A stretch of DNA of 64,000 bases from an uncultured Planctomycetales bacterium (lineage in GTDB: Bacteria > Omnitrophota > Gorgyraeia > Gygaellales > Profunditerraquicolaceae): the NCBI GenBank assembly GCA_964545575.1, contig CAZJFL010000005.1, positions 8,617-72,616 on the forward strand, read 5' to 3'. This document shows positions 8,005 through 49,088 of this stretch, in pieces. The notes beneath the pieces were generated by a model. It made no database searches and was not told where the DNA came from. It was given only the letters and a program-made list of their open reading frames with translations. Both the position numbers and the translations under genes were made by a program. Within the stretch, counting starts at the first letter, position 1; each line of letters opens with the position of its first letter.

Positions 8005-8922
8005 ATGAAGAAAATTCCTGCGATCATTTTATTATTTATAGCTTGGGGTTTGGGGTTTGGGATTTGGAATGCCCATGCCCAGGACAAAATCGTGGCTATT
8101 GTCAATAATGACATCGTCACCCAGAAAGACCTGGATGACTTTATCAATGTGATGCGCATCCAGTTATCAGAGGAGCTGCAAGGCAAAGAGCTGGAGAGTA
8201 AAATCCAGTCCATCAAGCTGGATTTGCTGGACAAACTTATCGAAGACCGCCTTATCCTGCAGGAGGCAAAGAAAGAAAAGCTCCGGCCTAACGAAGGCAT
8301 GATCAAGGGTAAAATTGAGGAGATGAAGAAGCATTATGATTCAGAAGAAGCGTTCAACAATGCCTTGGTCAAGCAGGGGCTGGTGCAGGCGGATTTAGAG
8401 GATAAGATCAGGGAGCAGCTCTTGATGCGCGGCATCGTAGAGAGCAAGGTAAAAGCGAGGATTTCGGTCAGCCCTAATGAAGTTATGGATTTTTACCAGA
8501 GGAACATGGAGAAATTCAAGCTCCCCGTGCAGCGCGAACTGGAAGTAATAAGCATGAAAAGCCAGAGCCTGGCCGGCGAGATTTTTAATGGTTTAAAACA
8601 AGGTAAGACCGTGCAAGAGCTTTTAGAGAAATATTCGCTTGTCACAGATAAGATTACCGCGATGCAAAACGGCCAGTTAAGAAAGGATATCGAAGATAAA
8701 ATATTCCAGCTTAATCTTGGCGAGTCAACTGACAGTATTCAGGTCGAAGACAATTATTATATATTTAAATTAGTCGCAATAATCCCTCCGCAGCAGCAAA
8801 CCCTCTCGGAAGTACAAGAAGAAATCCGTTCCTTCCTGCTGGAAGAAAAGATGCAGAAAGAATTAGCCAAGTGGATAGATGAGCTTAAGAAACGTTCCTA
8901 CATCAAAATCTACCAGAATTAG
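8005..8922 (+). CDS. SurA-like periplasmic chaperone / parvulin-type PPIase
   Basis: Signal peptide; SurA N-domain-like IVAIVNNDIVTQKDLD; parvulin-like middle domain; sits between mfd and pdxA as in the classical surA-pdxA-ksgA arrangement. Confidence 0.7.
   Translation: MKKIPAIILLFIAWGLGFGIWNAHAQDKIVAIVNNDIVTQKDLDDFINVMRIQLSEELQGKELESKIQSIKLDLLDKLIEDRLILQEAKKEKLRPNEGMIKGKIEEMKKHYDSEEAFNNALVKQGLVQADLEDKIREQLLMRGIVESKVKARISVSPNEVMDFYQRNMEKFKLPVQRELEVISMKSQSLAGEIFNGLKQGKTVQELLEKYSLVTDKITAMQNGQLRKDIEDKIFQLNLGESTDSIQVEDNYYIFKLVAIIPPQQQTLSEVQEEIRSFLLEEKMQKELAKWIDELKKRSYIKIYQN
8044..8071 (+). repeat. (TTGGGGT)x2-TTGGGAT-TTGGAAT heptamer array encoding the SurA signal-peptide core WGLGFGIW
   Basis: Read directly; same heptamer family as in the lptD and SPOR-protein signal peptides. 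Confidence 0.85.
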
Positions 8923-9856
8923 GGTTGGTATAACCATCGGCGATCCCTCAGGCATAGGCCCTGAGATAACCCTTAAGGCGATAGGTAAATTAAAGGGCAG
9001 GGCGGAGTTTGTTATCATCGGGGATAAATGGGTCATTAATAAGGTTCAGGGTTCAGGGTTCAGGGTTCAGGGTTTTAGGCTGGTAGACTTAAATAATGTA
9101 GCGCATAAAAATTTCTCTTTCGGTAAGATTAAAGCCGAATACGGGAGAGCTTCGGTTGAATATTTAGACAAGGCGCTGGAATTACTCCGGAAAAAAGAAA
9201 TAGATTGCCTGGTTACCTGCCCGATATCTAAGGAAGCAATTAATCTCGCCGGTTTCAAGGGGTTTTCCGGCCATACCGAATACCTGGCAAAATGCCTGGG
9301 GCTAGAAGATTTCGTAATGTTATTATTGAATAAAAAGTTAAAGTTTAGCCTGCTTACCAGGCACGTTCCTTTGAGGGAGGTGCCTTTTAAACTGGACAAA
9401 GAAAAAATAGGCAAGAATATAATTTTGACCATTCGAGCGCTTAAAGACCTGTTTGCCGTCAGGGATCCGCGCATCGTCGTCTGCGGCCTTAACCCGCATG
9501 CCTCGGATAACGGCGTGATCGGAGACGAGGAAAACAGGATGATTAAGCCGGCGCTGGCGAAATTAAGGATAAAGAATGTCTTCGGGCCGTATTCATCCGA
9601 TGTGGCTATCGCCGGGGCCCTGCATAGAAAATACGACTGCGTGATTGCTATCTATCATGATCAGGCGCTTATCCCCCTGAAGCTCTCGGGAAATAATCAG
9701 GGGGTGAATATGACCTTAGGGCTACCTTTTGTCAGGACTTCTCCTTTACACGGCACCGCTTTCGATATCGCCGGAAAAAATATCGCCTCATCCGATTCCT
9801 TGGTAGAAGCGATCAAGCTAGCCACTAGATGCGCCTTAAACCTAAAAAAAGCCTAG
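8879..9856 (+). CDS. pdxA: 4-hydroxythreonine-4-phosphate dehydrogenase PdxA (overlaps surA-like 3' end by 44 nt)
   Basis: GDPSGIGPEI, GHTEY, VCGLNPHA and TLGLPFVRTSPLHGTAFDIAG motifs. Confidence 0.85.
   Translation: MSLRNVPTSKSTRIRVGITIGDPSGIGPEITLKAIGKLKGRAEFVIIGDKWVINKVQGSGFRVQGFRLVDLNNVAHKNFSFGKIKAEYGRASVEYLDKALELLRKKEIDCLVTCPISKEAINLAGFKGFSGHTEYLAKCLGLEDFVMLLLNKKLKFSLLTRHVPLREVPFKLDKEKIGKNIILTIRALKDLFAVRDPRIVVCGLNPHASDNGVIGDEENRMIKPALAKLRIKNVFGPYSSDVAIAGALHRKYDCVIAIYHDQALIPLKLSGNNQGVNMTLGLPFVRTSPLHGTAFDIAGKNIASSDSLVEAIKLATRCALNLKKA
9044..9071 (+). repeat. (GTTCAGG)x4 heptamer array inside pdxA
   Basis: gttcagg gttcagg gttcagg gttcagg gtttt; encodes VQGSGFRVQGF in a variable region. Confidence 0.9.
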
Positions 9857-10614
9857 GCCAGAATTTTCTCACCGATAAAAACATCCAGAGGAAAATAATC
9901 CGCGCCTGCGCGTTTAATTCATCCGACTCCGTACTTGAGATAGGACCGGGAACCGGGGAATTGACCGCGCTGATCGCCGAGCAGGTAAATAGATTATACG
10001 CCGTAGAAATAGACCCGCGGTTATACGCCGGTTTAAAAGAGAGATTTCAGGGTTATTCTAGAGTCAAGATAATCAATGCCGACATCTTAAAAATTAACCC
10101 AAAAATTTACGCTAGAGGCAAATCTGCCAGGATCAAGGTCATTGGCAATATTCCCTACTATATTACTACGCCCATTATCGGGCATCTTTTTAAGTTCAGG
10201 GATAAAATAAAGCATATTTTTTTGACCGTACAGAAAGAGTTTGCCCAGAGGATCACCGCTTCCGCCGGCTCCAAAGATTACGGCTCTTTTAGCTGTTTCG
10301 TGCAGTATTATACAAAAGCCAAACAACTCTTTCTGATCAAGAAGACCAGTTTCTGGCCTGCGCCAAAAGTAGATTCCTGTTTTTTAAGTTTAGAAATAAA
10401 AGAGAAGCCCGATATCATCGTCAAAGATGAGGCGCGCTTTTTTAAAATTATCCGGCAGGCCTTTAACCAGAGGAGGAAGACCTTAAGGAATAGCCTGCGC
10501 GGGCTAATCGCTGCGGAAGAGCTGGAACATTTTTTTAGTAAGTATAGCATTAACAGCAAGATACGCCCCGAAGACCTCAGCTTAAAGGAGTTCGCGGATT
10601 TAAGTAACATCTAA
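9829..10614 (+). CDS. rsmA: 16S rRNA (adenine1518/1519-N6)-dimethyltransferase RsmA/KsgA
   Basis: LGQNFLTD...VLEIGPGTGELT...GNIPYYITTPI motifs. Confidence 0.9.
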   Translation: MRLKPKKSLGQNFLTDKNIQRKIIRACAFNSSDSVLEIGPGTGELTALIAEQVNRLYAVEIDPRLYAGLKERFQGYSRVKIINADILKINPKIYARGKSARIKVIGNIPYYITTPIIGHLFKFRDKIKHIFLTVQKEFAQRITASAGSKDYGSFSCFVQYYTKAKQLFLIKKTSFWPAPKVDSCFLSLEIKEKPDIIVKDEARFFKIIRQAFNQRRKTLRNSLRGLIAAEELEHFFSKYSINSKIRPEDLSLKEFADLSNI

Positions 10615-10627
10615 TCATATTTTTCCC

Positions 10628-10656
10628 TTGACGTTTTGATTTTATGCGCTATAATA
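10628..10656 (+). promoter_or_regulatory. candidate sigma70 promoter (TTGACG-16/17-TATAAT) upstream of the TPR protein
   Basis: cttgacgttttgattttatgcgctataat read directly. Confidence 0.4.
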
Positions 10657-10667
10657 TAAAAAAATAT

Positions 10668-11678
10668 ATGTCCAGCCAATCTCTCAAAAATAATATAAAA
10701 AATCTGGCGTTGGTATTACTTTTCGTAAGTTTTTCTTCTTTCCTCTTTGCCCAGGAACAGGTTCCCAATAATCAGGCGGCAAACCGCGGTTATATTGCCG
10801 CCAGCGACCTGCGGGAGGTAAAAAAGGGCACGGTCATATTTGAGGAAAAAGCCCCTAAACAGGCACCGATAGAGAGCGAGCAGGGCCTGACTGCGCTACA
10901 GAAACAGGCCAGGCTTTACCGCGCTCAAGGCTACGAGGCCCAGTCCACGGGTAATCTGGATATCGCCTTAAGTTTTTATCAGAAAGCAGTACAATTAGAC
11001 CCCGGCTATGCGGTGGTCTATAATGATTTGGGCGTCGTCTATGAAGACGCCGGCTTAACTGACCGCGCCGAAGGAAATTACCTGAAGGCAATTAAACTTG
11101 ACCCCGGATATTTAAGCGCGTATTCGAATCTCGCATTATTATACGAAAACAAGCGCGAGCTGGATAAGGCGGTTTTTTACTGGAAGAAAAGGGTGGAGTT
11201 AAGCGATAGCGATGACCTTTGGACAGCGCGGGCAAAGAAAAGGTTAAATGACCTGGCGCAAGTAGTGCCCAGCTATAAACAGGCATTAGCAGAGGCAGAG
11301 ACGATTAATCTGATCAGACAGGTAGCGCAGAATAAGCAGGCGAAGCAAGAGGTGTCTTTTAAGCAAGCAGCGCAGTACCTGGCCTCGGCTAAGAATCTTT
11401 ACAATAGAGGCCAATATGAGCAGGCGATGGAAGAAATCAACAAGGCCTTAGCAGCAGACCCTCAGGATAAACAAAAGCTTTGGCTGAAAGAAAAGATAGC
11501 CTCGATATTGAAAGAGCGCTACGATAAAGCCCAGGCGAAAGAGAGGCAGGAGAGCGTTAGGAAGATGAGGGCTTCTTTTGATCAAGGGGTGAAATATTAC
11601 CAACAGGGCAATCCGGAGGCAGCAGAGCTAGAATTCAATAAGATTATTGAACTCACCGCAGCACATCAAAAAAATTAA
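10668..11678 (+). CDS. secreted TPR-repeat protein (alternative start at 10644)
   Basis: Signal peptide ...LFVSFSSFLFAQEQ; multiple TPR units (LDIALSFYQKAVQLDPGYAVVYNDLGVVY...). Confidence 0.7.
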   Translation: MSSQSLKNNIKNLALVLLFVSFSSFLFAQEQVPNNQAANRGYIAASDLREVKKGTVIFEEKAPKQAPIESEQGLTALQKQARLYRAQGYEAQSTGNLDIALSFYQKAVQLDPGYAVVYNDLGVVYEDAGLTDRAEGNYLKAIKLDPGYLSAYSNLALLYENKRELDKAVFYWKKRVELSDSDDLWTARAKKRLNDLAQVVPSYKQALAEAETINLIRQVAQNKQAKQEVSFKQAAQYLASAKNLYNRGQYEQAMEEINKALAADPQDKQKLWLKEKIASILKERYDKAQAKERQESVRKMRASFDQGVKYYQQGNPEAAELEFNKIIELTAAHQKN

Positions 11679-11704
11679 TTTTCCACCTACTCTCTAATCC
11701 TGTA

Positions 11705-14242
11705 ATGAATAATCAGCGGATATTCTTAATAGATGCTACCGCATTCTGCTACCGCGCATTTTACGCCGTAACCGGCCTGGCTACATCTTTCGGGCAGCCC
11801 ACCAACGCCATCTACGGCTTTGTGAACATGCTGCTTAAGGTTATAAAGGAGAAAAGGCCAGAGTTTCTCGGCGTCTGCTTCGATGTTTCGCGGGATACGT
11901 TCCGGCAGAAAAAATTCGCTGATTATAAAAAACAGCGCCCGGCAATGCCGGATGAATTATCCGGCCAGATACCCTTGATTAAGGAAATAGTTTCGGCCTA
12001 CGGTATCCCGATATTTGAAAAAGAGGGCTTTGAAGCCGACGATGTAATCGCCAGCCTTAATAAACAAGCTAAGGAAAAAGGTTTTTCCGTCACCATTATT
12101 AGCTCGGATAAAGATATGTTGCAACTGGTGGATGAGGCCACAGAGGTATTTAGCCCCTATAAAGATGAAGGCATAACCTATGATTATAAAAGAGTGCTGG
12201 AGCGTTTTGGCGTGGAGCCGGCAAAGATACCGGATATTATCGCCCTGATGGGAGACGCTGCGGATAATATACCCAACGTCCCCGGTATAGGGGAAAAGAC
12301 GGCGCTAGATTTGATCAAGAGTTTTGGTTCGCTGGAGAAATTATTGGATAATATCGGCGAGCTAAAACAACAAAAGTTAAAGACTGCTATTCAGGATAAT
12401 ATAGCAAGCATTAAGCTGAGTAAAGAATTAGCAATGCTGGATAGCAATATGGAGTTAGGTTTTACTTTGGAAGGTTTAAAAATCAAAGAGCCAGACTACA
12501 AGGAAGTCCAGCGGCTCTTTAAATACCTGGAGTTTAAAAAGTTTTTGAAAGACTTGGCCTTAGCAAGCCCGGTTGCCCCAGAGATAAAAGCAGAGACTAT
12601 AGAAGATGCGCAGTTAGAGGGCATATTTGGCGCGGATGAGGAAATGGTTTTTTATCGCGGTGACGAGGGCGGTATTATATTTTCTGCCCAGGATAGGCCA
12701 TTACGTTTAGAAAGCTTCGGCAGCAATATCGCAAAGATTTTATCTAGCCCTAAGATAAAAAAGATCAGTCACGGCTTAAAAAAAATAAAGACATCCTTGG
12801 TACAAGTTAACATTATCTTGGAAGGAATATATTTCGATACGATGGTTGCTGCTTATTTGCTCAATCCCGCCAGAGGAGAATACAGCCTCGGCGATATCAG
12901 CACGGATTATCTTGATGCGCCGCCAGGCGATCCGGGAGTCGGATCGTCCGCAGCGCTGGATTTGATTTTAAAATTAAGGCCGAAGTTGGAAGAGGAATTG
13001 CGCCAGAAACAATTATGGGAACTTTTTAATACCCTGGAGATGCCGCTGGTAGAGGTATTGACGGATATGGAGTTAGCCGGGATCAAATTAGATTTAAAGG
13101 TCCTGGAGGAGTTATCGCAGGATCTGGAAAAAAGGCTGATCCGGCTGATCGAGGAGATCTATGCGGCAAGCGATGCCCAATTCAATATCAACTCCCCGAA
13201 ACAACTCAGAGAAATTTTATTCGAGAAACTTAAGTTGCCGGTGGTAAAAAGGAGCAAGACTGGCCCGTCTACCGACGAAGAAGTTTTAAGAAAATTAGCG
13301 GATAAACATAAACTACCGGCTTTGTTGCTGGAGTACCGGCAATTAGCCAAGCTTAAATCTACTTACATCGATGCGCTGCCCGAGCTGGTAAATCCTAAAA
13401 CCGGGCGGGTGCATAGCTCGTTTAATCAGACCGGCACTGAAACCGGGAGGCTCAGTTCCAGCAAGCCGAACCTCCAGAATATCCCGATTAAAACGGACAT
13501 CGGCCGCAATATCCGGCGGGCAATCATCGCTTCGGCTCCAGATAATTATCTTTTAGCCTGCGATTATTCACAGATAGAATTAAGAGTCCTGGCGCATCTT
13601 TCAAAAGACGGTAATCTGATCGAGGCCTTTAGGGAGAATAAAGACATCCATCGCATTACTGCTTCCCTGATTTACGGCTTAGCCGAAGAGCAGGTTGATG
13701 ATGCCATGCGCGATGTGGCTAAAAGGGTCAATTTCGGGATCGTCTACGGCCTGAGTTCCTACGGCTTGGCGCGGGACCTGAATATCCCGCAGGGCGAGGC
13801 CCAGATTTTTATCGACCATTATTTCTTAAGATACCCCAAAGTAAAAGATTATATAGAGGAGCAAATTGAAAAGGCCCGTAAAGACGGCTTTGTGACTACG
13901 CTTCTGGGGAGAAGAAGGTATATTCCGGAAGTGAATAATAAAAATCAGGGCTTAAGGCAGTTTGCCGAGCGCCAGGCAGTGAATGCCCCGATCCAGGGTT
14001 CTGCCAGCGACCTGATAAAATTAGCCATGGTTGATATACACCGGGAAATAAAACAAAAACCCTGGAAATCCCGGATGATTTTACAGATTCACGACGAATT
14101 ATTGTTTGATCTGCCGCTTCCGGAATTAAGCGGTTTTGCCGCTTTGGTAAGAAATAGGATGGAGAACGTGCTTAAACTCGATGTGCCGGTAAAGGTAGAT
14201 ATTAAAAAAGGAAGAAATTGGCTAGAGATGGAGCCTGTGTGA
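11705..14242 (+). CDS. polA: DNA polymerase I (845 aa; 5'-3' nuclease, vestigial 3'-5' exonuclease region, polymerase)
   Basis: FLIDATAFCYRAFYA N-terminus; polymerase motifs DYSQIELR, RRxAKxxNFGxxYG, QIHDELLF. Confidence 0.9.
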   Translation: MNNQRIFLIDATAFCYRAFYAVTGLATSFGQPTNAIYGFVNMLLKVIKEKRPEFLGVCFDVSRDTFRQKKFADYKKQRPAMPDELSGQIPLIKEIVSAYGIPIFEKEGFEADDVIASLNKQAKEKGFSVTIISSDKDMLQLVDEATEVFSPYKDEGITYDYKRVLERFGVEPAKIPDIIALMGDAADNIPNVPGIGEKTALDLIKSFGSLEKLLDNIGELKQQKLKTAIQDNIASIKLSKELAMLDSNMELGFTLEGLKIKEPDYKEVQRLFKYLEFKKFLKDLALASPVAPEIKAETIEDAQLEGIFGADEEMVFYRGDEGGIIFSAQDRPLRLESFGSNIAKILSSPKIKKISHGLKKIKTSLVQVNIILEGIYFDTMVAAYLLNPARGEYSLGDISTDYLDAPPGDPGVGSSAALDLILKLRPKLEEELRQKQLWELFNTLEMPLVEVLTDMELAGIKLDLKVLEELSQDLEKRLIRLIEEIYAASDAQFNINSPKQLREILFEKLKLPVVKRSKTGPSTDEEVLRKLADKHKLPALLLEYRQLAKLKSTYIDALPELVNPKTGRVHSSFNQTGTETGRLSSSKPNLQNIPIKTDIGRNIRRAIIASAPDNYLLACDYSQIELRVLAHLSKDGNLIEAFRENKDIHRITASLIYGLAEEQVDDAMRDVAKRVNFGIVYGLSSYGLARDLNIPQGEAQIFIDHYFLRYPKVKDYIEEQIEKARKDGFVTTLLGRRRYIPEVNNKNQGLRQFAERQAVNAPIQGSASDLIKLAMVDIHREIKQKPWKSRMILQIHDELLFDLPLPELSGFAALVRNRMENVLKLDVPVKVDIKKGRNWLEMEPV

Positions 14243-14246
14243 TTTG

Positions 14247-14290
14247 CCCCTCACCCAGAAAGCCATAGTAAGGTAGCGCTGGGTGAGGGG
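14247..14290 (+). terminator. hairpin CCCCTCACCCAG-N20-CTGGGTGAGGGG after polA
   Basis: 12-bp inverted repeat read directly; no clear U tract (rho is encoded in this window). Confidence 0.45.
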
Positions 14291-14300
14291 TTAATTCGCA

Positions 14301-14352
14301 CACATAACTTATGTCGCGCTTCGCGCTCCATAAGTTATGTGCTCATTAAATG
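14301..14352 (+). promoter_or_regulatory. 13-bp inverted repeat CACATAACTTATG-N15-CATAAGTTATGTG followed by CTCATTAAA, just upstream of the glgA RBS; shares the core AACTTAYG/CRTAAGTT + TGCTCATTAAA with the uxs upstream motif
   Basis: Read directly; near-identical arrangement at 52665-52707. Confidence 0.5.
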
Positions 14353-14363
14353 GAGGAGGTAAA

Positions 14364-17588: not shown

Positions 17589-17599
17589 AGGAGATAAAA

Positions 17600-17812: not shown

Positions 17813-18870
17813 TGTTAGAGCAGTTAGAAAAGTTAGAAGCCCGTTATCAGGAACTGGAAAAGATACTTGCCTCTTATGAGGCTATTTCCGACAAAGAGCA
17901 GTACAATAAATACGCCAAAGAATTATCTCTTTTGAGGGAACCGGTATCTCTCTGGCGGGAATACAAGAAGGTCTCTCTAGAATTAGAGGGCCTGGAGGCG
18001 GTGCTTAAAGAAAAAAACGAAAAGGAATTATCGGAGTTGGCCCGGGAAGAACTGCCGAAACTGGAAAATAAAAGGCGCCAGATCCAAGAGAAACTTAAAA
18101 GTATCCTCAAAGGCGAAGATAAGGACGCCGGATGCGACGTAATCGTAGAAATACGGCCGGGCACCGGAGGAGATGAAGCAGGTTTATTTGCCGCCGACCT
18201 TTACCGCATGTATACCAAGTATGCGGCAAATAAAGGATGGGCCCAAGAGCCCCTGTCGGCCAATACCACCGAGGTGGGCGGTTTTAAAGAAATGCTCTTC
18301 AGTTTAAAGGGCAGGGATGTTTATAGGAGACTTAAGTTCGAAAGCGGGGTGCACCGCGTGCAGCGCGTGCCTACTACGGAAGCGCAGGGCAGGATACATA
18401 CCTCTACGGCGACGGTGGTAGTGCTGGTAGAGCCTGAAGAAGTGGAGATGGTGATTGAGCCCAAAGACTTGAGGATAGATACCTATCGCTCTTCCGGCCC
18501 CGGAGGCCAGCATATGCAAAAAACCGATTCGGCAGTGAGGATTACGCATATACCTACGGGGGTAGTGGTAGCCTGTCAGGATGAGCGCTCGCAATTAAAA
18601 AATAAAAATAAAGCGATGCGGATTTTAGGCGCCCGGATGCTGGATATGAAAAGGCAGGAGGAGTCCCGGAAGATCTCCGCAGCGCGCAAGTCCCAGATAG
18701 GCACCGGAGACCGCAGCGAAAAAATACGCACTTATAATTTTCCCGACCGGCGCGTAACCGACCATCGCATCAACTTTACCTCGCACCGGCTGGAAGCGAT
18801 ACTGGAGGGCGACTTAGACGAGCTTTCCGATGCCCTGATAAAGGCGTCCGAAGAGAAATCAAATGAATGA
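17812..18870 (+). CDS. prfA: peptide chain release factor 1
   Basis: PxT-type recognition region, GGQ motif ([24 protein letters not shown]). Confidence 0.9.
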
Positions 18871-19666
18871 GGCAGAGTTACTCTTTAGCGAGACATTAAA
18901 TTGCAGCCGCACGGATTTATACCTGAATAAGGCCTTGAGGCTAAATAGCGCCCAGGTTTCATTTATAGCCGGCGCCTTAAAAAGAAGATTATCCGGAGAG
19001 CCCCTAGAGTATATCTTAGGCAAGACCGAGTTTATGGGTTTAGAGTTTAAACTGGATGAAAATGTTTTTATCCCCCGGCCGGAGACGGAGCTTCTTGTAG
19101 AGAAGGTATTGGCATTGTTAGAGAACAGAGAACAGAGAACAGAGAACAGAGATATTTTGGAGTTGGGGACGGGTTCAGGATGTATTGCTGTATCTGTGGC
19201 AAAATATCTGGATAATGTCCGCATCACCGCAACGGATATTTCGGAAAAAGCCCTGCAGGTTGCTAGGATAAATGCCAGGATTAATCGCGTAGAAGATAAA
19301 ATCGTATTCTTAAGAAGTAATTTATTTGAGGCGATAAGCGATAAGCGCTATGCGCTATGCGTATGCAATCCTCCCTATATACCCAGCGCAGAAATTGATA
19401 ATTTGCAGCCTGAAGTAAGGCATGAACCGCGCCTCGCCCTGGACGGCGGAGAAGACGGTTTGGATTTTTATCGCCGGATGATTAAAGAGGCCGGGCAGTA
19501 CCTGGAAAAAGACAGTTATCTGATTATGGAGATGGGGTTCGGCCAGAAGGATGCCATAAAAGATATAGTTGGCGCATCAGGGATCTTTAAGACAAATAAG
19601 ATCATTAAAGATTATAGCGGTATAGACAGAATCATATTAGTCAGCAGAGAGGAAAGAGATGGATAA
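18863..19666 (+). CDS. prmC: release factor glutamine N5-methyltransferase PrmC/HemK
   Basis: [14 protein letters not shown] motif and NPPY catalytic motif; downstream of prfA. Confidence 0.85.
19121..19148 (+). repeat. (GAGAACA)x4 heptamer array inside prmC, an insertion of about 5 aa ([10 protein letters not shown]) relative to HemK homologs
   Basis: gagaaca gagaaca gagaaca gagaaca gaga read directly. Confidence 0.9.
19331..19365 (+). repeat. 7-nt periodic block GCGATAAx2-GCGCTATx2-GCGTATG inside prmC just before the NPPY codons
   Basis: gcgataa gcgataa gcgctat gcgctat gcgtatg read directly. Confidence 0.8.
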
Positions 19667-27134: not shown

Positions 27135-28166
27135 ATGGTTTTATTATTTCCGTTGCCGTTAATATTGATATTTTTACTGGTTCTGGCTCTTTTATCTTTT
27201 TTCTTTTCCGCTTCTGAAACCGCCATCATCGGCTTAAGCAAGATCAGGCTGCGCAATATGATCCGTAAAGGCATAAAACGGGCCCAGAGTATACAGAACC
27301 TGATTACCAAGCTGGATAAGTTCATCGCAGCCATCCTTATAGGTAATGATTTCGTAAACATCGCAATTTCTGCCATTGTCACCGCAATATTCGTTCAGGT
27401 CTTCGGTTACCGCTGGGGCGTGGTCATCGCTACTTTTAGTTCTACTTTCTTCGTCCTTATCCTCTGCGAAATAACTCCTAAAATATTAGCCATCAAGCAT
27501 GCTGAAAAAATAGCCCTTTTTACCGCCCCAATTATGGAATTATTTATTCGCGTCTTCAAGCCGATTATCCTGATTTTTACGGTAACCAGCAGCGTGATCT
27601 TAAGGGTATTCGGCATAAAGCCGGTAAAGCGCTCTCCGTTGATTACTGAAGAGGAATTGCGCATGATGATCGAGGTAGGCAAGGAGGAGGGTGTTTTAAG
27701 CGAGCAGGAAAGGAAGATGCTGCATCGTATCTTTGAATTTGGCGATACTAAGGTAGCCGACGTGATGGTACCGAAGGGAAAAATCATCGCAGTCAATATA
27801 AACTCTAGCGCCGAAGAAGTACTAAACATCTTTGCCGAAGAGGGCCACGCCAGGCTTCCGGTTTATTCCGGGTCTATCGATAATATCGTAGGCATGCTTT
27901 ATGCCCGCGACCTGCTTTATATCTTAAAGGACAAGGGATTATTTTTATTGCAGGATTTATTGCATGCGATATATTTTGCTCCCGGAAATATGCGCGTAAA
28001 TGAGCTTCTGATTAAGTTTCAGGCCGAAAAAATACAGATTGCAGTCATCGTGGATGATAAGAAAAATACCTCCGGTATAGTCACCCTTGAAGATCTGATC
28101 GAGGAAATAGTGGGGGAGGTCAAAGAAAAGCACACTAGGCATAGTTCCGGCCGCCCCAAAAATTAA
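27135..28166 (+). CDS. CNNM/HlyC-CorC-family membrane protein (DUF21 + CBS pair), apparently without the C-terminal CorC_HlyC domain
   Basis: 4-TM DUF21 N-terminus; tandem CBS modules (VADVMVPKGKIIAV..., VIVDDKKNTSGIVTLEDLIEEIVGE). Confidence 0.7.
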   Translation: MVLLFPLPLILIFLLVLALLSFFFSASETAIIGLSKIRLRNMIRKGIKRAQSIQNLITKLDKFIAAILIGNDFVNIAISAIVTAIFVQVFGYRWGVVIATFSSTFFVLILCEITPKILAIKHAEKIALFTAPIMELFIRVFKPIILIFTVTSSVILRVFGIKPVKRSPLITEEELRMMIEVGKEEGVLSEQERKMLHRIFEFGDTKVADVMVPKGKIIAVNINSSAEEVLNIFAEEGHARLPVYSGSIDNIVGMLYARDLLYILKDKGLFLLQDLLHAIYFAPGNMRVNELLIKFQAEKIQIAVIVDDKKNTSGIVTLEDLIEEIVGEVKEKHTRHSSGRPKN

Positions 28167-31688: not shown

Positions 31689-32879
31689 ATGAATAACAAG
31701 GGTGTGCATATAAGAACTTTCGGCTGCCAAATGAATGTCCGCGATTCGGAAGTCATCTGCGGGCTGCTAAAGAAAGAGGGGTATAAAATAGTAGACGAGC
31801 CGAAGAAGGCAGATATCCTAATTTTTAATACCTGTTCCGTCAGGCAGCATGCAGAAGAAAAAATTTGGTCGGCGTTAGGTAAACTCAGGGTTCATAGTTT
31901 AGCTAAGCCCACAATTGGGCTTATCGGCTGTATGGCACAGAATTACAAAGAGAAAATTTTTGAACGCGCGCCAAACGTTGATTTTGTAATCGGCCCATCC
32001 GATATTGCCAAGATTCCTGAGATGATTTCACGGTTCACGGTTCACGGTTCTCGGTTATCGCAATCAGGAAATAAACGAACACCGAACACCGAACACCGAA
32101 CACCGAGCGCTGAGCTCTTTGAGCGCAAAATCTGGGAAACTGATGGCGATATCCGGCCGGAAGAAATTTATCATACCGGATTTTACGAAGACAAAAATCA
32201 CGCCTATGTGGTCATTTCCGAGGGCTGCTCTAATTTCTGCTCTTATTGCGTAGTGCCTTATGTGCGGGGCCCTTTACATAACCGAAATCATAAGGATATA
32301 TTAAAAGAGATAGAAGGGGCAGTGGAGCAGGGTATAACCCGGATTACCCTTCTGGGGCAAAATGTTAGCGCTTATAAAGATAATCAAGTTGGGTTCGTGG
32401 AATTAGTTAAATTAGTTGAATTAGTGAAGGGGTTGGAGGAGTTTAGTTTTATTACATCTCATCCGAAAGATACATCGGCCGAGCTGTTTAAAGCCATGCG
32501 CGATAGGGGAAAATTAAAAAAATACCTGCATCTTCCGGTGCAGTCCGGATCAGACCGGATTTTGCAATTGATGAACCGCGGATACACCCGAAAATTTTAT
32601 TTAGGTTTAATAGATAATTATCGTAAAGTAGTAAAAAATGGCGTGTTGACTACGGATATAATTGTTGGCTTTCCGGGCGAGACCGAAGATGATTTCAAGG
32701 ATACATATAATTTAGTTAAAGAGGTACAATTTGACGCGGCCTATATTTTTAAATATTCTCCCCGGCCGAATACCCAAGCCGAAAAGTTAGGTGATGGTGT
32801 GCCTAAAAACGAGAAAGAGAGCAGGCACGCGCTTATACTAGAATTGCAGAAGAAGATATCTAAGAGTAAAAAATGTTAA
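31689..32879 (+). CDS. miaB: MiaB-like radical-SAM methylthiotransferase (tRNA-i6A37 2-methylthiolation); about 25-aa linker insertion; TRAM domain apparently absent
   Basis: MTTase N-domain cysteines (FGCQMN...NTCSVR...GCMAQ), radical SAM CSNFCSYCVVPY; only 396 aa; miaA two genes downstream. Confidence 0.75.
   Translation: MNNKGVHIRTFGCQMNVRDSEVICGLLKKEGYKIVDEPKKADILIFNTCSVRQHAEEKIWSALGKLRVHSLAKPTIGLIGCMAQNYKEKIFERAPNVDFVIGPSDIAKIPEMISRFTVHGSRLSQSGNKRTPNTEHRTPSAELFERKIWETDGDIRPEEIYHTGFYEDKNHAYVVISEGCSNFCSYCVVPYVRGPLHNRNHKDILKEIEGAVEQGITRITLLGQNVSAYKDNQVGFVELVKLVELVKGLEEFSFITSHPKDTSAELFKAMRDRGKLKKYLHLPVQSGSDRILQLMNRGYTRKFYLGLIDNYRKVVKNGVLTTDIIVGFPGETEDDFKDTYNLVKEVQFDAAYIFKYSPRPNTQAEKLGDGVPKNEKESRHALILELQKKISKSKKC
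32027..32061 (+). repeat. (TTCACGG)x3 + TTCTCGG + TTATCGC heptamer array inside the miaB-like linker
   Basis: ttcacgg ttcacgg ttcacgg ttctcgg ttatcgc read directly. Confidence 0.9.
32076..32103 (+). repeat. (CGAACAC)x4 heptamer array inside the miaB-like linker, 15 nt after the previous array
   Basis: cgaacac cgaacac cgaacac cgaacac cgag; encodes NTEHRTPNTEHRTPS-like low complexity. Confidence 0.9.
32399..32425 (+). repeat. 9-nt tandem repeat GAATTAGTT-AAATTAGTT-GAATTAGTG inside miaB-like (encodes ELVKLVELV)
   Basis: Read directly. Confidence 0.8.
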
Positions 32880-33679
32880 ATCCAAAACAGAAATTTTGTC
32901 ATTGGGTATTTGTATTTGGGATTTATTTTGAATTTTGTGCTTTGGTATTTGGATTTTACAGTAATGCTTATGCCCTCGATTTGACCAAGGTCAAGGCCTG
33001 CTTTCTAAAAGGCGATTATAAGTCTGCGATAATAGAAGGAGAAAAAAACTTGGGTAGTGCCACCGGTAACAGCTATGGATTAGATGAGCTTTATTATATC
33101 TTAGGTTTAAGTTATCTAAAAGATGGTAATTATCTGCGCGCTACGGATATATTCGAGATTATTTTAAGGGAGTTTAAAAGGAGCGCCTTTGGAGATGAGG
33201 CTAAATTAGCTTTGGGCGATACCTATTTTTTAAAAGGCGAATACGCAAGAGCGCAAACATATTATAAAGAGCTGGCGGATAGCAAGCGCCAGCATAAACT
33301 GAAGCCTTTGGCATACGAGCGCCTCAGCCAGTGCGCCCTGAAAACCGGCAATACCGGGGAAGCAAGAAATTATTTAGCCAAGCTTAAGATTGAGTTTCCG
33401 CTTGCCCTTAACCTGGGAAATCAGATTAATAAAGAAGCAGCTATCCCTTCGGATTTATACTACACCGTGCAGGTAGGTTCCTTTTCCAATCAGGTAAATG
33501 CCAGGAATCTGGCGCAGAACTTAATTAATCAAGGCTGCCCCGCCTACCTGGAAGAATCAAATTCTCAGGGAGAAGTAAGTTACCGCGTCAGGGCAGGGAA
33601 GTTCCATTCCCGGCAGGAGGCGGCGGATTTAGAAAAGAAGCTCGTAGCGCTTGGCTATCCCACTAAGATATTCCCTTAG
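32873..33679 (+). CDS. secreted TPR + SPOR-domain protein (septal peptidoglycan-binding)
   Basis: Signal peptide; TPR units; C-terminal SPOR-like YYTVQVGSFSNQVNARNLAQNL...YRVRAGKFHSRQEAADLEKKL. Confidence 0.7.
   Translation: MLNPKQKFCHWVFVFGIYFEFCALVFGFYSNAYALDLTKVKACFLKGDYKSAIIEGEKNLGSATGNSYGLDELYYILGLSYLKDGNYLRATDIFEIILREFKRSAFGDEAKLALGDTYFLKGEYARAQTYYKELADSKRQHKLKPLAYERLSQCALKTGNTGEARNYLAKLKIEFPLALNLGNQINKEAAIPSDLYYTVQVGSFSNQVNARNLAQNLINQGCPAYLEESNSQGEVSYRVRAGKFHSRQEAADLEKKLVALGYPTKIFP
32902..32957 (+). repeat. 8 consecutive 7-nt periodic units (TTGGGTA TTTGTAT TTGGGAT TTATTTT GAATTTT GTGCTTT GGTATTT GGATTTT) encoding the SPOR/TPR signal peptide
   Basis: Read directly; same TTGGGRT/TTTGGAT family as the surA and lptD signal peptides. 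Confidence 0.75.
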
Positions 33680-36703: not shown

Positions 36704-36704
36704 T

Positions 36705-37220: not shown

Positions 37221-37316
37221 CACCCGGCCATATCGGATTGGCCGGTGCGCCCTTTCTGGACAAGCACCCAATCCTAAAGGATGGATTGGTGTGTGTCCCT
37301 ACACAAGGAGGTTAAT

Positions 37317-40348: not shown

Positions 40349-40362
40349 TATAATCTTTACCC

Positions 40363-41640: not shown

Positions 41641-41658
41641 GAGCCGGGAGTTTGGAGT

Positions 41659-42498: not shown

Positions 42499-42569
42499 TT
42501 TTAGAAATATTGTTGGTATAATAGCGGCTCAAATAAGATTTTTATTCCGACCAACGGAGCGAGGAGTAT

Positions 42570-44982: not shown

Positions 44983-45968
44983 CGGTATTGGCATTATTGA
45001 CTGTTTTCTTTTATCTCTGGCTTAAATCTACTCTCGATAACAATTTTTTAAAGGGCCAGAGGCACTATGACGATATCAACGTAAAATACAACGGATTATT
45101 GCAGGATAATACGCGCCTAGAGGAGGAAAACGCGGGCCTGGAAGAAAAGGTCGAATATAATGTCGCCCTTTACGATATTACCAGAGCGCTTTGTAAATCT
45201 TTGGAAGAGGAAAAAGTATTTGCTATTTTTAAGGAGCAGTTAAAGAAGTACATCGGGGTAAGCGATTGTAAGTTTACCAGAGAAGATATAGAGCCGCAAG
45301 AATATAAAGAAAAAACCGTCGTCCCTTTAAAAATAGATAAGGATAATCTGGGCCTTTTGATTGTGGGCGGGATAAGAGAGCGAGATTTGGATACCTTCAA
45401 TATCCTGGCCCAGCAGTTTCTCCTGGGGGTTAAGCGGGCTATTTTATACCAGCGCGTCCAGGCCATTGCCATTACCGATGGCCTGACACAGGTTTTCAGC
45501 CGCCGGTATTGCCTGGGAAGGTTCCGGGAAGAAATAGAACGATCAAAGAAGTTCAAGCATAACTTTTCTTTTATGATGATTGATATAGATTATTTCAAGA
45601 ATTATAATGACCGATACGGCCATTTGGTGGGAGACGCGGTCTTAAGAGAAGTAGCTGATACCATCAAGGAGAGCGTCAGGCAGATAGACCTGGTCGGCAG
45701 GTACGGCGGCGAGGAGTTTTTGATTATTTTGGTTGAGACCGCAGCCCAGCAGTCCGGGTTTGTTGCCGAACGTATCCGCAAGGCGGTCGAAGATAGGCAG
45801 ATCAAGGTATACGATGAGGACATTAAGGTTACGATCAGTATCGGAGTAGCTACTTTCCCCGAAGACGCCCGGGAGCCCCAAGCTATAATTGAGCGGGCAG
45901 ACAGGGCCCTCTACCGCGCAAAAGAAGCCGGCAGGAATAAGGCCTGCCTTTACAGCGATACTAAGTAG
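44970..45968 (+). CDS. membrane-anchored GGDEF diguanylate cyclase (paralog of the upstream gene)
   Basis: N-terminal TM helix, coiled coil, GGDEF domain with RYGGEEF motif. Confidence 0.8.
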   Translation: MWNIAVLALLTVFFYLWLKSTLDNNFLKGQRHYDDINVKYNGLLQDNTRLEEENAGLEEKVEYNVALYDITRALCKSLEEEKVFAIFKEQLKKYIGVSDCKFTREDIEPQEYKEKTVVPLKIDKDNLGLLIVGGIRERDLDTFNILAQQFLLGVKRAILYQRVQAIAITDGLTQVFSRRYCLGRFREEIERSKKFKHNFSFMMIDIDYFKNYNDRYGHLVGDAVLREVADTIKESVRQIDLVGRYGGEEFLIILVETAAQQSGFVAERIRKAVEDRQIKVYDEDIKVTISIGVATFPEDAREPQAIIERADRALYRAKEAGRNKACLYSDTK

Positions 45969-46014
45969 TATTAATCCTTGCAATTAAAATCGCTTTAAGC
46001 TAAAATAAAAAGCT

Positions 46015-46941
46015 ATGGTAGAAGATTTTATCATCGCGATTGACTTGGGCGGCACAAACTTAAAAATTGCCCTGCTTGATGCCAAATACAGGATCAGGGA
46101 CAGGCGCTTTTTAAATACCCGCCGGTTTGGCGAAAAAGAAGGACTGATCCGGGGTATGGCCGAAGCAATAAATGATTTGTTGGGTTGTAACCGTTTGAGC
46201 AAGAAAAAGATACGCGGCCTAGGTGTTGGTTTGCCCGGCCCGGTAGATAACCGCCGGGGTATCGTGCATTTCCTGCCTAATATTGCTGGATGGAAAGAAG
46301 TGAGGCTGAAGCAGATTTTAGAAAAAAAATTAGGGCTCGCCGTTTTTTTGGATAACGACGCTAATCTAATGAGCCTGGCGGAGTATAAATTAGGGGCAGC
46401 GCAGGGTAGCCGTTATGCGGTCTGCCTTACTTTAGGCACCGGTGTCGGCGCGGGTATCATTATCGAAGGGAAGATCTACCGCGGGGCAGATAACGCAAGT
46501 GCCGAGGTCGGCCACATCCCCATTAATGAAAACGGCCCGCGCTGTAAGTGCGGAGGTAGAGCTTGTCTTGAATCCTATATCGGCAACCGTAGTATCGAGA
46601 AGCTGGCGCGCAGGTTATTCGGCCGCAATATTTCTTTGGAAGAATTGGGCGCGCGGGCTAAAGCAGGAAACAAAAAAGCGCTGGCCATCTGGTCGAGCCT
46701 GGCGCATCGCTTAGGCGTGGCTTTGGTCGGGGTGGTAAACCTGCTTAACCCGGATTGTATTGTTATCGGCGGCGGTGTGGCGGGCGCCGGCAAGATATTG
46801 TTTGAGCGGGTAAGAAAGGTGGTAGAAAAACAGGCGATGCGGATACAAGGCCGCCGGGTCAAGATATTGCAGGCAAGGTTAGGTAGTGATGCCGGCCTGA
46901 TCGGAGCGGCGATTATGGTAAGAGAAGCACGGGCGAAATAG
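46015..46941 (+). CDS. ROK-family sugar kinase (glucokinase-like)
   Basis: IAIDLGGTNLKIALLD N-terminus; ROK zinc motif CKCGGRACLESY. Confidence 0.8.
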   Translation: MVEDFIIAIDLGGTNLKIALLDAKYRIRDRRFLNTRRFGEKEGLIRGMAEAINDLLGCNRLSKKKIRGLGVGLPGPVDNRRGIVHFLPNIAGWKEVRLKQILEKKLGLAVFLDNDANLMSLAEYKLGAAQGSRYAVCLTLGTGVGAGIIIEGKIYRGADNASAEVGHIPINENGPRCKCGGRACLESYIGNRSIEKLARRLFGRNISLEELGARAKAGNKKALAIWSSLAHRLGVALVGVVNLLNPDCIVIGGGVAGAGKILFERVRKVVEKQAMRIQGRRVKILQARLGSDAGLIGAAIMVREARAK

Positions 46942-46943
46942 AA

Positions 46944-49088
46944 ATGCAAAAATATTTAAAATTATTTAATTTTGTTTTTTTAGTTTGGATTTTGATATTT
47001 GGATTTTGGATTTATGCATCTGCCCAGGCGCACAAAGACTCGATAATCATTAACGGCGATACCGTGGAATACTCCACAGAGAAAAATGAAGCTACCGCCA
47101 TAGGTAACATTGTGATAAATTACAAAGGCGCGATACTCACCTGTGATAAGTTAACGATCAATACCCTCACCAAAGAAGGTATTGCCGAGGGAAACGCAAA
47201 GCTAGAAGATGAAAGGGGGGTTATTACCGGTTCCAAGATCACTTATAATTTTAATACTAAGGCCGGTACGATCATTGACGCCGGTTTCCGGTCTAATCCT
47301 TATTTCGGCAAGGCCGAAAGGATAGAAAAGATAAACGATCGGGAGTTTATCTCGCTTGGCGGTTATATGAGTACCTGTAACTATGACCATCCGCACTACA
47401 GCATCGGGTCAAAAAAGATAGATTTCTTCCCCAAAGATAAAGTAGAGATTAAGGGCGCTGCGGTTCATCTTTTGGGTATCCCGATATTATATCTGCCCAA
47501 ATTTACCCATAGCCTGGTTGAGGATAGACCTAAAATAATGAATATACAGGTCTCTCCCGGCATGAGAAAAGAATGGGGCCCTTATCTGCTTACCGGCTGG
47601 CGTTATAACCTTACGGAAAACATTATGGGCAGGCTTTACCTGGATTACCGCTCGAAGCTGGGGGTAAGCGAAGGCGTGGGTTTTAATTATAGGTCGCCGG
47701 TGGGCAACGGAGACTTTAAGTTTTATTACACCCAGGAACATCCGCAAAACCATCCCGTAGAAGGCCCTGATGAGTTTGAAAGGTATTTTGCGCGCCTACG
47801 CCATAAATGGGATATAGACAAACGCACGAATCTCACCGTAGAGTATTATAAGATCGCCGACCAGGAAAGAAGGCTGCCTCTCTATCCGGGCGATTTATTA
47901 AAAGATTATTTTTACCGCGAATACGAAAAGAATTCCCAGCCGGTATCTTACGCCCTGCTTTATCATAATTTCAGTTATTCCAGCCTCGGCTTGCTTTTAC
48001 AGAGGCGCACTAACCACTGGTATGAACAGCTCAATAAAACCCCGGAGCTGTCTTATAGTTTGCCCAGCATACGTATCGGCAGCACCCCGTTTTATTTTGA
48101 AAACAATACTACCGCCGCAAACTTTGACAAAAAGGCAACCACCTACCCTTACACCAGCGATGATGTAACCGTATCCAGATTTGATACCAGCAATACCCTT
48201 TCCCTGCCGCTTAAGCTATTCTTTGTAGAGTTTACGCCCTTCGTAGCCGGACGCGAGACTGTCTATGATAAGGGCGCAGGCGGTTTTTCCGTTCCGAAAA
48301 GGACGATATTCTCTGGCGGGGCAAACTTAAGCACCAAAATTTTCCGCCTATTTGATGTTAAATCGGATTTCTTGGGGCTAGATATAAACGGCATCCGGCA
48401 CATCATTACGCCGATAGTAAAGTATGTCTATAACCACCGACCGACCATCTCCGCCAGCAAGCTTCAGCAGATAGATGCGATTGATTCTCTCGCTGCAAGC
48501 GAATATATCTCTTTGGAATTATCCAATAAACTGCAGACAAAGAGAGAAGGAAAGGCTGTAGACCTGGCGAACTTGCGCATAAACACGTTATACAATTTGA
48601 AGACTAAAGACGGCCCCGGCTCAAGTTTTTCCGATTTTTACCTGGATCTGGAATTGCGCCCTTATGCATGGCTGCGTATTAAGTCCGACGCTAGCTACGG
48701 CTATAAAGAAAAATACTTTAAGGAAGCCAACGTCAATTTATACGCTACCTTAGGTAAAGAAAGGTATCTAGGCGTCGGCCACCGGTATTTGAGGGGCGGC
48801 GGCAAAGAGATGACTTCGGAATTGGCCTGGCGGCTGAACCCTAAGTGGAAATTCAAGGTATACGAACGTTATCAATTTGCAGATTCCCAGAGCCGCGGAC
48901 TGATGGAACAGGAATATACATTAACCCGCGACCTGCATTGCTGGGAGACCGATATCAGTTATAATATCAGTAAAACAGACGGCCATACCCTGTGGTTTGT
49001 GTTCAGGTTAAAGGCCTTTCCGGAGCTTGAGTTTGGCTTCCAGCAGAGTTACCACCCGGATCAGTCAGGCTCCCAATCTAACCCTTAA
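46944..49088 (+). CDS. lptD: LPS-assembly outer-membrane protein LptD
   Basis: Signal peptide; OstA-like N-domain (IINGDTVEYSTEKNEATAIGNIVINYKGAILTCDKLTIN...); about 600-aa beta-rich C-terminal domain. Confidence 0.75.
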   Translation: MQKYLKLFNFVFLVWILIFGFWIYASAQAHKDSIIINGDTVEYSTEKNEATAIGNIVINYKGAILTCDKLTINTLTKEGIAEGNAKLEDERGVITGSKITYNFNTKAGTIIDAGFRSNPYFGKAERIEKINDREFISLGGYMSTCNYDHPHYSIGSKKIDFFPKDKVEIKGAAVHLLGIPILYLPKFTHSLVEDRPKIMNIQVSPGMRKEWGPYLLTGWRYNLTENIMGRLYLDYRSKLGVSEGVGFNYRSPVGNGDFKFYYTQEHPQNHPVEGPDEFERYFARLRHKWDIDKRTNLTVEYYKIADQERRLPLYPGDLLKDYFYREYEKNSQPVSYALLYHNFSYSSLGLLLQRRTNHWYEQLNKTPELSYSLPSIRIGSTPFYFENNTTAANFDKKATTYPYTSDDVTVSRFDTSNTLSLPLKLFFVEFTPFVAGRETVYDKGAGGFSVPKRTIFSGGANLSTKIFRLFDVKSDFLGLDINGIRHIITPIVKYVYNHRPTISASKLQQIDAIDSLAASEYISLELSNKLQTKREGKAVDLANLRINTLYNLKTKDGPGSSFSDFYLDLELRPYAWLRIKSDASYGYKEKYFKEANVNLYATLGKERYLGVGHRYLRGGGKEMTSELAWRLNPKWKFKVYERYQFADSQSRGLMEQEYTLTRDLHCWETDISYNISKTDGHTLWFVFRLKAFPELEFGFQQSYHPDQSGSQSNP
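46984..47011 (+). repeat. (TTTGGAT)x4 heptamer array (one TTTGATA variant) encoding the LptD signal-peptide core ILIFGFWI
   Basis: tttggat tttgata tttggat tttggat read directly. Confidence 0.85.

Follow-up and report, generated by a model that had tools for sequence, protein, structure and literature searches.

The signal peptides of three envelope-biogenesis proteins encoded in a 64,000-nucleotide stretch of contig CAZJFL010000005.1 (the window), from a Candidatus Omnitrophota bacterium, contain tandem repeats of a seven-nucleotide unit. The three proteins are a SurA-like protein, LptD and a protein with SPOR and TPR domains, and in each of them a G/T-rich heptamer tract occupies the signal-peptide core. 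The relatives that we identified through PdxA, LptD and SPOR/TPR are Candidatus Omnitrophota metagenome-assembled genomes (MAGs); labels L001 to L032 denote the contigs or sequences used for comparison. We propose, as the probable explanation, that heptamer elements are present throughout this lineage, that they are tolerated within signal peptides, and that cassettes made from them have been copied between genes. The tracts and the coding regions that hold them are as follows, with a slash marking the cleavage site.

8005..8082, + strand: SurA-like signal-peptide coding region, MKKIPAIILLFIAWGLGFGIWNAHAQ/D, in an open reading frame (ORF) with Pfam SurA_N_3 and Rotamase_2; orthologues keep the mature start QDKIVAIVN.
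8043..8070, + strand: SurA heptamer tract, TTGGGGT twice, then TTGGGAT and TTGGAAT, encoding WGLGFGIWN between the hydrophobic h-region and the cleavage site.
46944..47030, + strand: LptD signal-peptide coding region, MQKYLKLFNFVFLVWILIFGFWIYASAQA/H.
46983..47013, + strand: LptD 31-nt TTTGGAT-type element with the odd unit TTTGATA, called by Tandem Repeats Finder and with copies elsewhere.
32873..32977, + strand: SPOR/TPR signal-peptide coding region, MLNPKQKFCHWVFVFGIYFEFCALVFGFYSNAYA/LD.
32877..32894, + strand: SPOR A/C-rich arm TAAATCCAAAACAGAAAT, encoding NPKQK of the basic n-region; remnant of an AAATCCA array.
32902..32925, + strand: SPOR G/T-rich tract 1, TTGGGTA TTTGTAT TTGGGAT, encoding WVFVFGI.
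32937..32957, + strand: SPOR G/T-rich tract 2, TGCTTTGGTATTTGGATTTT, encoding CALVFGF.

All three tracts had been reported in a first-pass annotation of this DNA, and all three were found in the sequence. The coordinates given for LptD (46984-47011) were exact, and the SPOR/TPR tract (32902-32957) splits into all eight of the units described; the SurA repeats are present as well but begin one base before position 8044, where they had been placed, and span 8043-8070. The core peptides and cleavage-region strings reported with them agree with the translations and the sequence. Protein identities were upheld by Pfam (SurA_N/Rotamase, LptD, SPOR plus TPR). By inspection, each N-terminus has the layout of a Sec-type signal peptide processed by signal peptidase I: the n-regions of SurA, LptD and SPOR begin MKK, MQKYLK and MLNPKQK, their translated hydrophobic cores are AIILLFIAWGLGFGIW, LFNFVFLVWILIFGFWIY and WVFVFGIYFEFCALVFGF, and their translated cleavage motifs are AHA/Q, AQA/H and AYA/L, respectively. 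The heptamer units fall within codons 14-22 of SurA, 14-23 of LptD and 10-28 of SPOR.

Tandem Repeats Finder called a period-7 array of 3.6 copies with 94% matches in SurA (8043-8067) and one of 4.3 copies in LptD (46984-47013), and called no period-7 array in the SPOR/TPR tract. Periodicity was then scored against two nulls, resampling of synonymous codons according to this genome's usage and shuffling of codon order. The SurA tract has 19/21 period-7 matches (P<2e-4 on both nulls). LptD and SPOR each have 15/21, with P=0.03 and 0.01, respectively, under synonymous resampling and 0.01 and 0.03 under codon-order shuffling. Modest when judged by periodicity alone, these two tracts are strongly backed by comparison with relatives. 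The codons used in the tracts are the rarer GGG/GGT/GGA and TTG, not the preferred GGC and TTA/CTG. None of the three contains more than two identical consecutive units, and the longest perfect runs are 16-17 nt. The odd unit TTTGATA of LptD sits exactly where an in-frame GAT (Asp) codon would fall. In SPOR, the A/C-rich arm forms an inverted repeat with 32908-32925 (83% complementary), and 32874-32886 forms another with 32948-32960 (92%). SPOR tract 2 is probably a decayed version of the FVICALSFVI (TTTGTCA-type) core that is frequent in orthologues.

Within the window, period 7 is the only strong tandem period: 54 positions reach at least 19/21, compared with none for the rest of periods 3-13 and for period 15, and 8 for the harmonic period 14. 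Perfect period-7 arrays cluster at 30-33 nt, no run at any other period exceeds 10 nt, and the strong arrays all lie on the coding strand inside ORFs. The first-pass annotation had recognized that such a signal might be common to membrane helices or might follow from codon bias in Phe/Gly-rich ones. Across 81 hydrophobic segments of the genome, the mean best period-7 score was 8.7, compared with 8.1-9.4 at other periods, so ordinary helices do not carry the periodicity. The N-terminal outliers were SurA (19), ORF 63207 (17), YajC (16), SPOR (15) and LptD (15); one internal helix, in ORF 55071, also scored 15 and was equalled at period 10. SecDF and ORFs 27135, 28234 and 30283 scored at background. 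Codon bias of Phe/Gly-rich helices is ruled out as a full explanation for SurA by its result on the two nulls, and also by the absence of period 7 from ordinary helices.

Since 7 cannot be divided by 3, translation of a heptamer array passes through all three frames and yields a 7-residue peptide repeat made from the seven cyclic codons of its unit; TTGGGGT gives LGFGVWG and TTTGGAT gives FGFWILD. Only hydrophobic or small residues are encoded in all seven phases by 254 of the 16,384 possible heptamers, and the composition of these is 46% G, 46% T and 0% A. They include all 128 units made of G and T only, which encode F, L, C, W, V and G and nothing else in any frame. Units made of A and C only are confined to K, N, Q, T, P and H. 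The residue flavour of an array is thus set by the limits that the genetic code places on G/T-only and A/C-only codons, and arrays rich in G and T would therefore be acceptable as hydrophobic cores, those rich in A and C as basic n-regions. The observed arrays conform to this: mean G+T content is 72% in the 50 hydrophobic array windows, which begin near residue 20, and 21% in the 17 polar ones, which begin near residue 6. The W/G/F flavour that SurA, LptD and SPOR/TPR have in common comes from translating TTGGGRT/TTTGGAT units and is not a motif under selection.

Orthologues of the three proteins carry arrays of quite different composition. The mature N-terminus of SurA (QDKI.AIVN) is kept in its orthologues, and the same site, between the h-region and the cleavage site, holds heptamer arrays with other units and other peptides: ATTTTAC in L001, giving FTFYILHFTF, and GTTACGA/GTTACTA in L002, L004 and L005, giving ITSYELLVTSYELF. 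SurA of L003 has no array. Among LptD orthologues, signal peptides are plain in L007, L009 and L016 and array-bearing in L008, L013 and L015. We scanned the phylum by comparing 10-residue windows with all 11,256 stop-free translated heptamer arrays, counting at least 8/10 identities as a match. For SPOR/TPR, 36/117 signal peptides (31%) matched a translated array, 6 of them perfectly, against 0/117 shuffled signal peptides and 1/119 mature regions. For LptD, 28/115 signal peptides or N-termini (24%) matched, 9 perfectly, against no shuffled sequence and 0/115 mature regions. These counts, set against their controls, indicate that heptamer-built signal peptides are a phylum-wide feature. The unit families involved are many (AATCCAA, TTTACAT, TTTGTCA, TTTGCGT, CAAACTC, TTACAGA and others); the W/G/F flavour of the window is one among them and is conserved for none of SurA, LptD and SPOR/TPR. 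A separate feature was seen in the more distant LptD orthologue of L011 (9551-10000), where a highly acidic, internally repetitive insertion of ~130 residues (EE.L.EDEV...) is placed between the signal peptide and the conserved N-terminal domain.

The first-pass annotation had also noted that the three window signal peptides are alike at the DNA level. Scored against dinucleotide shuffles, this likeness holds (SurA-LptD z 5.3, LptD-SPOR z 4.1, SurA-SPOR z 3.0), and it does not extend to four other signal peptides of this genome (z -0.3 to 1.4). Far higher scores were obtained between different genes of different genomes. Window SurA scores z 10.2 with the LptD signal of L015; window SPOR scores z 16.3 and 14.0 with the LptD signals of L015 and L013, over about 80-110 nt; window LptD scores z 20.2 with a gene of L018, and L001 SurA scores z 17.6 with L027 SPOR. 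Against the signals of its own orthologues, window SurA scores z 0.7 or less. High values across genes and low values among SurA orthologues show that similarity tracks clade, not gene.

Two shared sequences illustrate this pattern. The first is the ~31-mer of window LptD, TTTGGATTTTGATATTTGGATTTTGGATTT, which includes the irregular unit and occurs in at least three genes, in both orientations and with sharp boundaries. An identical copy lies in L018, in a family-2 glycoside hydrolase (GH2) gene downstream of sugar-permease genes. A second identical copy, reverse-complemented, encodes the lipoprotein n-region MKIQNPNIKIQNK in L017, an organism whose LptD is only 24% identical to that of the window and which shows no synteny with it; L031 LptD has the 31-mer with one mismatch. 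The syntenic close relatives L013 and L015 carry diverged versions of the LptD tract, and vertical descent therefore does not explain the identity of the 31-mer. The second sequence, cassette B (ATTTTAC type), comprises ~66 nt including non-repetitive flanks and an FPC(F/Y)A cleavage region, and is found in at least three genes, L001 SurA, L027 SPOR/TPR and L030 LptD. Their alignment diverges directly after the cleavage-site Ala codon, and a second three-gene alignment, of the LptD-tract type and including L031 LptD, likewise parts at that point. In a further pair, L029 SPOR/TPR and L015 LptD align over ~120 nt, which comprise an n-region AAATCCN array, a spacer, a G/T-rich h-region and the AYA region. 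Shared cassettes thus span about 66-120 nt in SurA, SPOR/TPR and LptD genes on different contigs, and homology ends at the cleavage-site codon. The earlier suggestion that signal-peptide coding segments were copied between genes is backed by these cassettes more strongly than when it was made.

Searches at larger scale added no members. The N-terminal 40 residues of LptD gave no candidate in an index of 5.8 billion proteins, sharing too few words with any entry. An exhaustive HMMER search with the 30-residue signal peptide against 1.8 billion representatives gave 0 matches, since a short hydrophobic query cannot reach significance, and an exact 28-mer scan of viral contigs also gave 0.

Heptamer elements are not confined to the three signal peptides. 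Additional members in the window are:

63224..63256, + strand: n-region array of GTTCAGC heptamers in ORF 63207-63617, whose signal peptide is the fourth to bear an array, here of the other unit family.
1079..1138, + strand: palindromic heptamer-periodic element in HisF (GTTCAGA arm plus GAAC arm), ~60-70 nt, in-frame, ~20 residues.
9043..9074, + strand: PdxA array of 4.6 perfect GGTTCAG copies; at this position relatives carry arrays of different units.
19120..19152, + strand: perfect AGAGAAC x4.7 array in the PrmC-like ORF 18863-19666, translated as 11 residues.
32027..32106, + strand: paired TTCACGG and CGAACAC arrays in MiaB, a 15-residue insertion missing in the closest relative.

The two arrays that lie next to each other in HisF are inverted with respect to one another over 26 nt. 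When the protein is compared with solved HisF structures, the element stands out as a clean insertion of ~20 residues, and the remainder aligns with them at E=4e-101. The element's in-frame position indicates that this lineage tolerates translated heptamer arrays. MiaB of the window and of L028 have reciprocal 15-residue insertions at different sites, each site being empty in the other. The PdxA array occupies the same codon position in four genomes with a different unit in each: GGTTCAG in the window, TCCCAAA in L001 (1607-1639), CCAGGTG in L002 (2613-2650) and GGTGTCA in L005 (7473-7510). In the prmC-like gene we also observed overlapping GCGATAA x2.4 and GCGCTAT x3.3 arrays (window 19331-19361) that form the palindrome AGCGATAAGCGCTATGCGCT.

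A ~70-nt element with a GTTCAGA(GTTCATA) arm and an xxGAACx arm recurs at unrelated positions: in-frame in hisF of the window (1079-1138) and twice in L028 (8991-9064 and 16428-16508), where one copy is in-frame in miaB, at the site that is empty in the window, and the other is in the dnaK-dnaJ spacer. These copies are DNA hairpins (z -5.4 to -7.8), and from its distribution the element appears to behave like a small mobile palindrome. A further 9.6 kb downstream of the window was read from L019, which is 100% identical in the overlap. It contains, in the proA-nadD spacer (L019 11886-12015), a long non-coding hairpin (-37.7 kcal/mol, z -6.2) in which AAATCCN-type heptamers are followed by TTTRGRN-type heptamers and which resembles signal-peptide cassettes (z 6.7-10.4). 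Dispersal at non-orthologous sites, in genes and in spacers, was found for the 31-mer, cassette B, the GTTCAGA/GAAC element and the proA-nadD hairpin, and homologues with filled and empty sites were found for HisF, for MiaB and for LptD, given the plain signals of L007, L009 and L016. The same downstream region has an A-rich array (AAATATC/AAAATCA; L019 12935-12972) within the gene for ribulose-phosphate 3-epimerase; its complement reads as TTTGATA/TTTTGAT units, like the odd unit of LptD.

The least-decayed cassettes are also hairpins, their n-region arm pairing with their h-region arm (L018 z -5.0, L029 z -3.8, L032 z -2.6), and the window SPOR gene keeps the complementary n-region arm. The idea that all cassettes are hairpins was rejected as a rule, folding being significant only in those three. 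An inverted-repeat census of the whole window with 8-nt seeds found nothing relevant; such seeds miss mismatch-rich heptamer hairpins. The LptD signal region of L009 (4231-4325) has no detectable heptamer array, yet it folds far better than shuffles (z -3.4).

Several observations weigh against our explanation. The periodicity of LptD and SPOR, taken on its own, is weak (P 0.01-0.03), and low-complexity repeats inflate alignment z-scores relative to dinucleotide shuffles. The SurA comparison covers six genomes, and signal peptides were assigned by their n-h-c layout and orthology rather than by a predictor. The core word TTTTGGATTT occurs twice in the window where 0.6 is expected, and 13/100 shuffles reach 2; it is not clearly over-represented and therefore belongs to a low-copy family there. 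Folding no better than that of shuffles was obtained for the three window signal regions (z -0.1 to 0.9), and none for cassette B. Two same-contig SPOR/LptD pairs have no common cassette, so sharing within one genome is not a rule. Both these pairs and the unrelated character of the other signal peptides led us to reject the simpler idea of one signal-peptide flavour per genome. Finally, no transposase, terminal repeats or target-site duplications were noticed in the fragments examined, in which no systematic search for them was made.

Could the arrays instead have arisen separately, by slippage in situ within each gene, with convergent selection for hydrophobic residues leaving only G/T-rich units in h-regions and no copying at all? 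Changes in unit number do occur. L002 pdxA has exactly one unit fewer than that of L005, and its reading frame is broken inside the array; the SPOR n-region array is 24 nt (~3 units) longer, in frame, in the 78%-identical closest relative L028 than in the window. The PdxA arrays at their single site resemble a unit drifting within a lineage, and, as 1.6% of heptamers are compatible with an h-region, some convergence is expected. Slippage does not account, however, for a 31-mer that is identical down to its irregular unit, a unit without selective rationale in the reverse orientation of the L017 n-region. It also does not account for cassette B homology that takes in non-repetitive flanks and the FPC(F/Y)A region in three genes, for the ~120 nt shared by L029 and L015, spacer included, or for one hairpin element at non-orthologous sites and in spacers. 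Both the irregular unit, which recurs in the copies, and cassette B's non-repetitive flanks argue against pure convergence, and we consider this alternative unlikely. A contingency-locus reading, in which gain or loss of 7-nt units switches genes on and off as the CTCTT repeats of Neisseria opa do, draws on the same L002 pdxA frameshift and on a repeat that, as in opa (PMC3960869), has a unit length not divisible by 3 and is located within the leader-coding region. Simple-sequence repeats are enriched near prokaryotic N-termini according to Lin and Kussell, as cited in PMC4692102. Against it, the window tracts are interrupted and hold at most two identical consecutive units, where a long homogeneous tract would be expected; the host genes (lptD, surA, hisF, pdxA) are essential housekeeping genes, not surface antigens; and the SurA arrays of L002, L004 and L005 differ by substitutions only. 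Nine more contigs assembled for this species (L014, L019-L026) are 99.7-100% identical over the hisF, ORF 63207 and LptD arrays and show, as consensus assemblies, no copy-number variation. Their near-identity gives no evidence of phase variation, which we regard as extremely improbable. One 31-nt indel between the window (46471-46501) and L014 looked array-sized at first sight and proved to be a non-repetitive deletion instead. This deletion frameshifts a ROK-family kinase gene upstream of lptD in L014, and may be either a strain deletion or an assembly error.

The first-pass annotation offered, as one of its two readings, a G-F-G/aromatic sorting signal dedicated to outer-membrane biogenesis factors. 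Three envelope proteins of one genome do share the flavour when four other signal peptides do not, and FGIWN..AQ recurs in several LptDs. Orthologues of SurA, LptD and SPOR/TPR, by contrast, carry unrelated arrays or none. Nor is the motif confined to a single functional class of cargo: the LptD-type tract is also present on the GH2 glycoside hydrolase, the same DNA serves in reverse complement as a lipoprotein n-region, and a related hairpin is non-coding. Identity extends to synonymous sites, which points to DNA copying and not to selection on the peptide. The unconserved flavour and the many unit families argue against a sorting signal, a reading that is largely refuted by this missing conservation and that we hold to be highly improbable. 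Of the functional payload proposed for the repeats, one part stands, as the arrays encode working n- and h-regions, and the dedicated sorting code does not. Selection might otherwise act on RNA or DNA structure at the 5' ends of messages that encode exported proteins, the peptide being of lesser importance. The structure in question could be a hairpin that slows translation, a G-quadruplex in the GGGGTTT tract of SurA or a U-rich signal for membrane targeting. The strong hairpins of L018, L029 and L032 extend over the whole signal-peptide region, and in Xanthomonas and Nostoc, G-quadruplexes are formed by G-rich heptamers that occur preferentially as four units (PMC4692102). The window genes and cassette B, however, lack such folding, and the same elements lie mid-gene in cytoplasmic enzymes and in spacers. 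G-runs in the SurA tract are GGGG, GGGG, GGG and GG; the LptD and SPOR tracts have GG only, with no true G-runs in LptD. A structural role of this type is, in our view, very unlikely.

Returning to tolerated and copied heptamer elements, we envisage the following course. Omnitrophota genomes carry small repeat elements with arms of 4-5 heptamer copies (about 30 nt). Some of these are hairpins, in which an A/C-rich arm is followed by a complementary G/T-rich arm, and the elements lie both in intergenic DNA and in-frame within genes. Signal-peptide codons, in which arrays are seen to be enriched, need little beyond charge and hydrophobicity, and this tolerance may be why they accumulate them. 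The alignments show that whole cassettes, consisting of n-region array, h-region array and cleavage region, were copied from gene to gene without regard to homology of the hosts and have in time been replaced. Copying could have proceeded by ectopic recombination or gene conversion, with the repeats as seeds, or the element itself could have inserted. The three copies in the window would be older and partly decayed, as their interrupted repeats and lack of a hairpin suggest, and the in-frame Asp codon of the LptD tract may have been replaced during this decay. A bolder proposal, which we offer tentatively and consider doubtful, is that Omnitrophota possess a mobile, self-contained export tag: a small, strand-asymmetric heptamer palindrome that moves between genes and genomes and is able to create or replace signal peptides at the 5' ends of genes. 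Its A/C-rich arm would supply a basic n-region and its complementary G/T-rich arm a hydrophobic h-region. Its period of 7 and its palindromic form would let it serve as a proto-signal-peptide whichever frame or orientation it is read in.

Among the known systems that we compared, Rickettsia palindromic elements (RPEs), opa CTCTT repeats, Xanthomonas/Nostoc heptamers and PARCELs, none joins heptamer arrays to the formation of signal peptides and the exchange of cassettes among core genes. RPEs, or in-frame miniature inverted-repeat transposable elements (PMC10969869), are similarly small palindromes dispersed in unrelated genes and spacers, adding in-frame peptide segments to conserved proteins (here HisF) and varying in presence between close relatives. 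They differ in being about 150 bp long, whereas the elements described here measure 60-120 nt overall, with heptamer-periodic arms of about 30 nt, and are strongly enriched in signal-peptide codons, to which they would supply a functional module. Neither a conserved element-encoded peptide fold nor a transposase or target duplication was identified here, although no systematic search for the latter two was made. Like our tracts, the opa repeats (PMC3960869) are a non-triplet tandem unit in signal-peptide codons and encode the hydrophobic part; they are long, perfect and hypervariable and switch surface antigens, whereas the Omnitrophota tracts are short, interrupted, invariant across conspecific assemblies and located in essential genes.

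The GGGNATC/GGGGAYT heptamers of Xanthomonas and Nostoc (PMC4692102) are also dispersed genome-wide with about four units preferred, and the SurA unit, rotated to GGGGTTT, likewise contains a G-run. Those heptamers, however, are in excess in non-coding DNA and depleted from the coding strand of ORFs, whereas nearly all arrays here are translated, and most units here (GTTCAGA, ATTTTAC, TTTGGAT) cannot form G-quadruplexes. The tandem heptanucleotide repeats of cyanobacteria cited in PMC4692102 are comparable as well. PARCELs (PMC2996958), or palindromic amphipathic repeat coding elements, resemble our elements in being repetitive coding DNA with dyad symmetry, linked to membrane-targeted proteins and apparently shuffled within and between genomes. 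Their domains are of 25 residues (75 nt) in long tandem tracts of accessory surface proteins, in contrast to 7-nt units that form the n- and h-regions of core-protein signal peptides.

Signal peptides are usually held to evolve by point mutation under loose constraint. In this phylum, a sizeable share of core envelope signal peptides apparently consists of non-triplet, microsatellite-like arrays that are exchanged as DNA modules. This route would be a concrete mutational way to make, lengthen and replace export signals, with the split between G/T-only and A/C-only codons allowing a repeat to encode one half of a signal peptide and its complement the other. A search of the literature on Omnitrophota/Omnitrophica with tandem or heptanucleotide repeats found no relevant prior description, and the making and renewal of signal peptides by heptamer repeats looks like a previously undescribed route. 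For the annotation of Omnitrophota MAGs, the array-bearing N-termini, in-frame insertions such as those of HisF and MiaB, and one-unit frameshifts like that of L002 pdxA will mislead gene callers and signal-peptide predictors and will disturb pseudogene calls.

Two minor observations concern other parts of the window. T-rich period-7 arrays of 2.9 copies lie in the first hydrophobic segments of a lipoprotein (242-261, TTATTTT), YajC (3624-3643, TTTTTTA) and a CNNM/CBS membrane protein (27188-27207, TCTTTTA); these could be weak or decayed instances of what is described above, or could reflect plain T-richness. Adjacent pilin-like genes at 54005-54400 and 54605-55003 have nearly identical N-terminal halves (M.RKRGFTLVEIMIVVAIIALLAAIAIPNLLQARRTANDVAAKATVRSL...), and the pair looks like a recent tandem duplication in a cluster resembling those for type IV pili or type II secretion systems.

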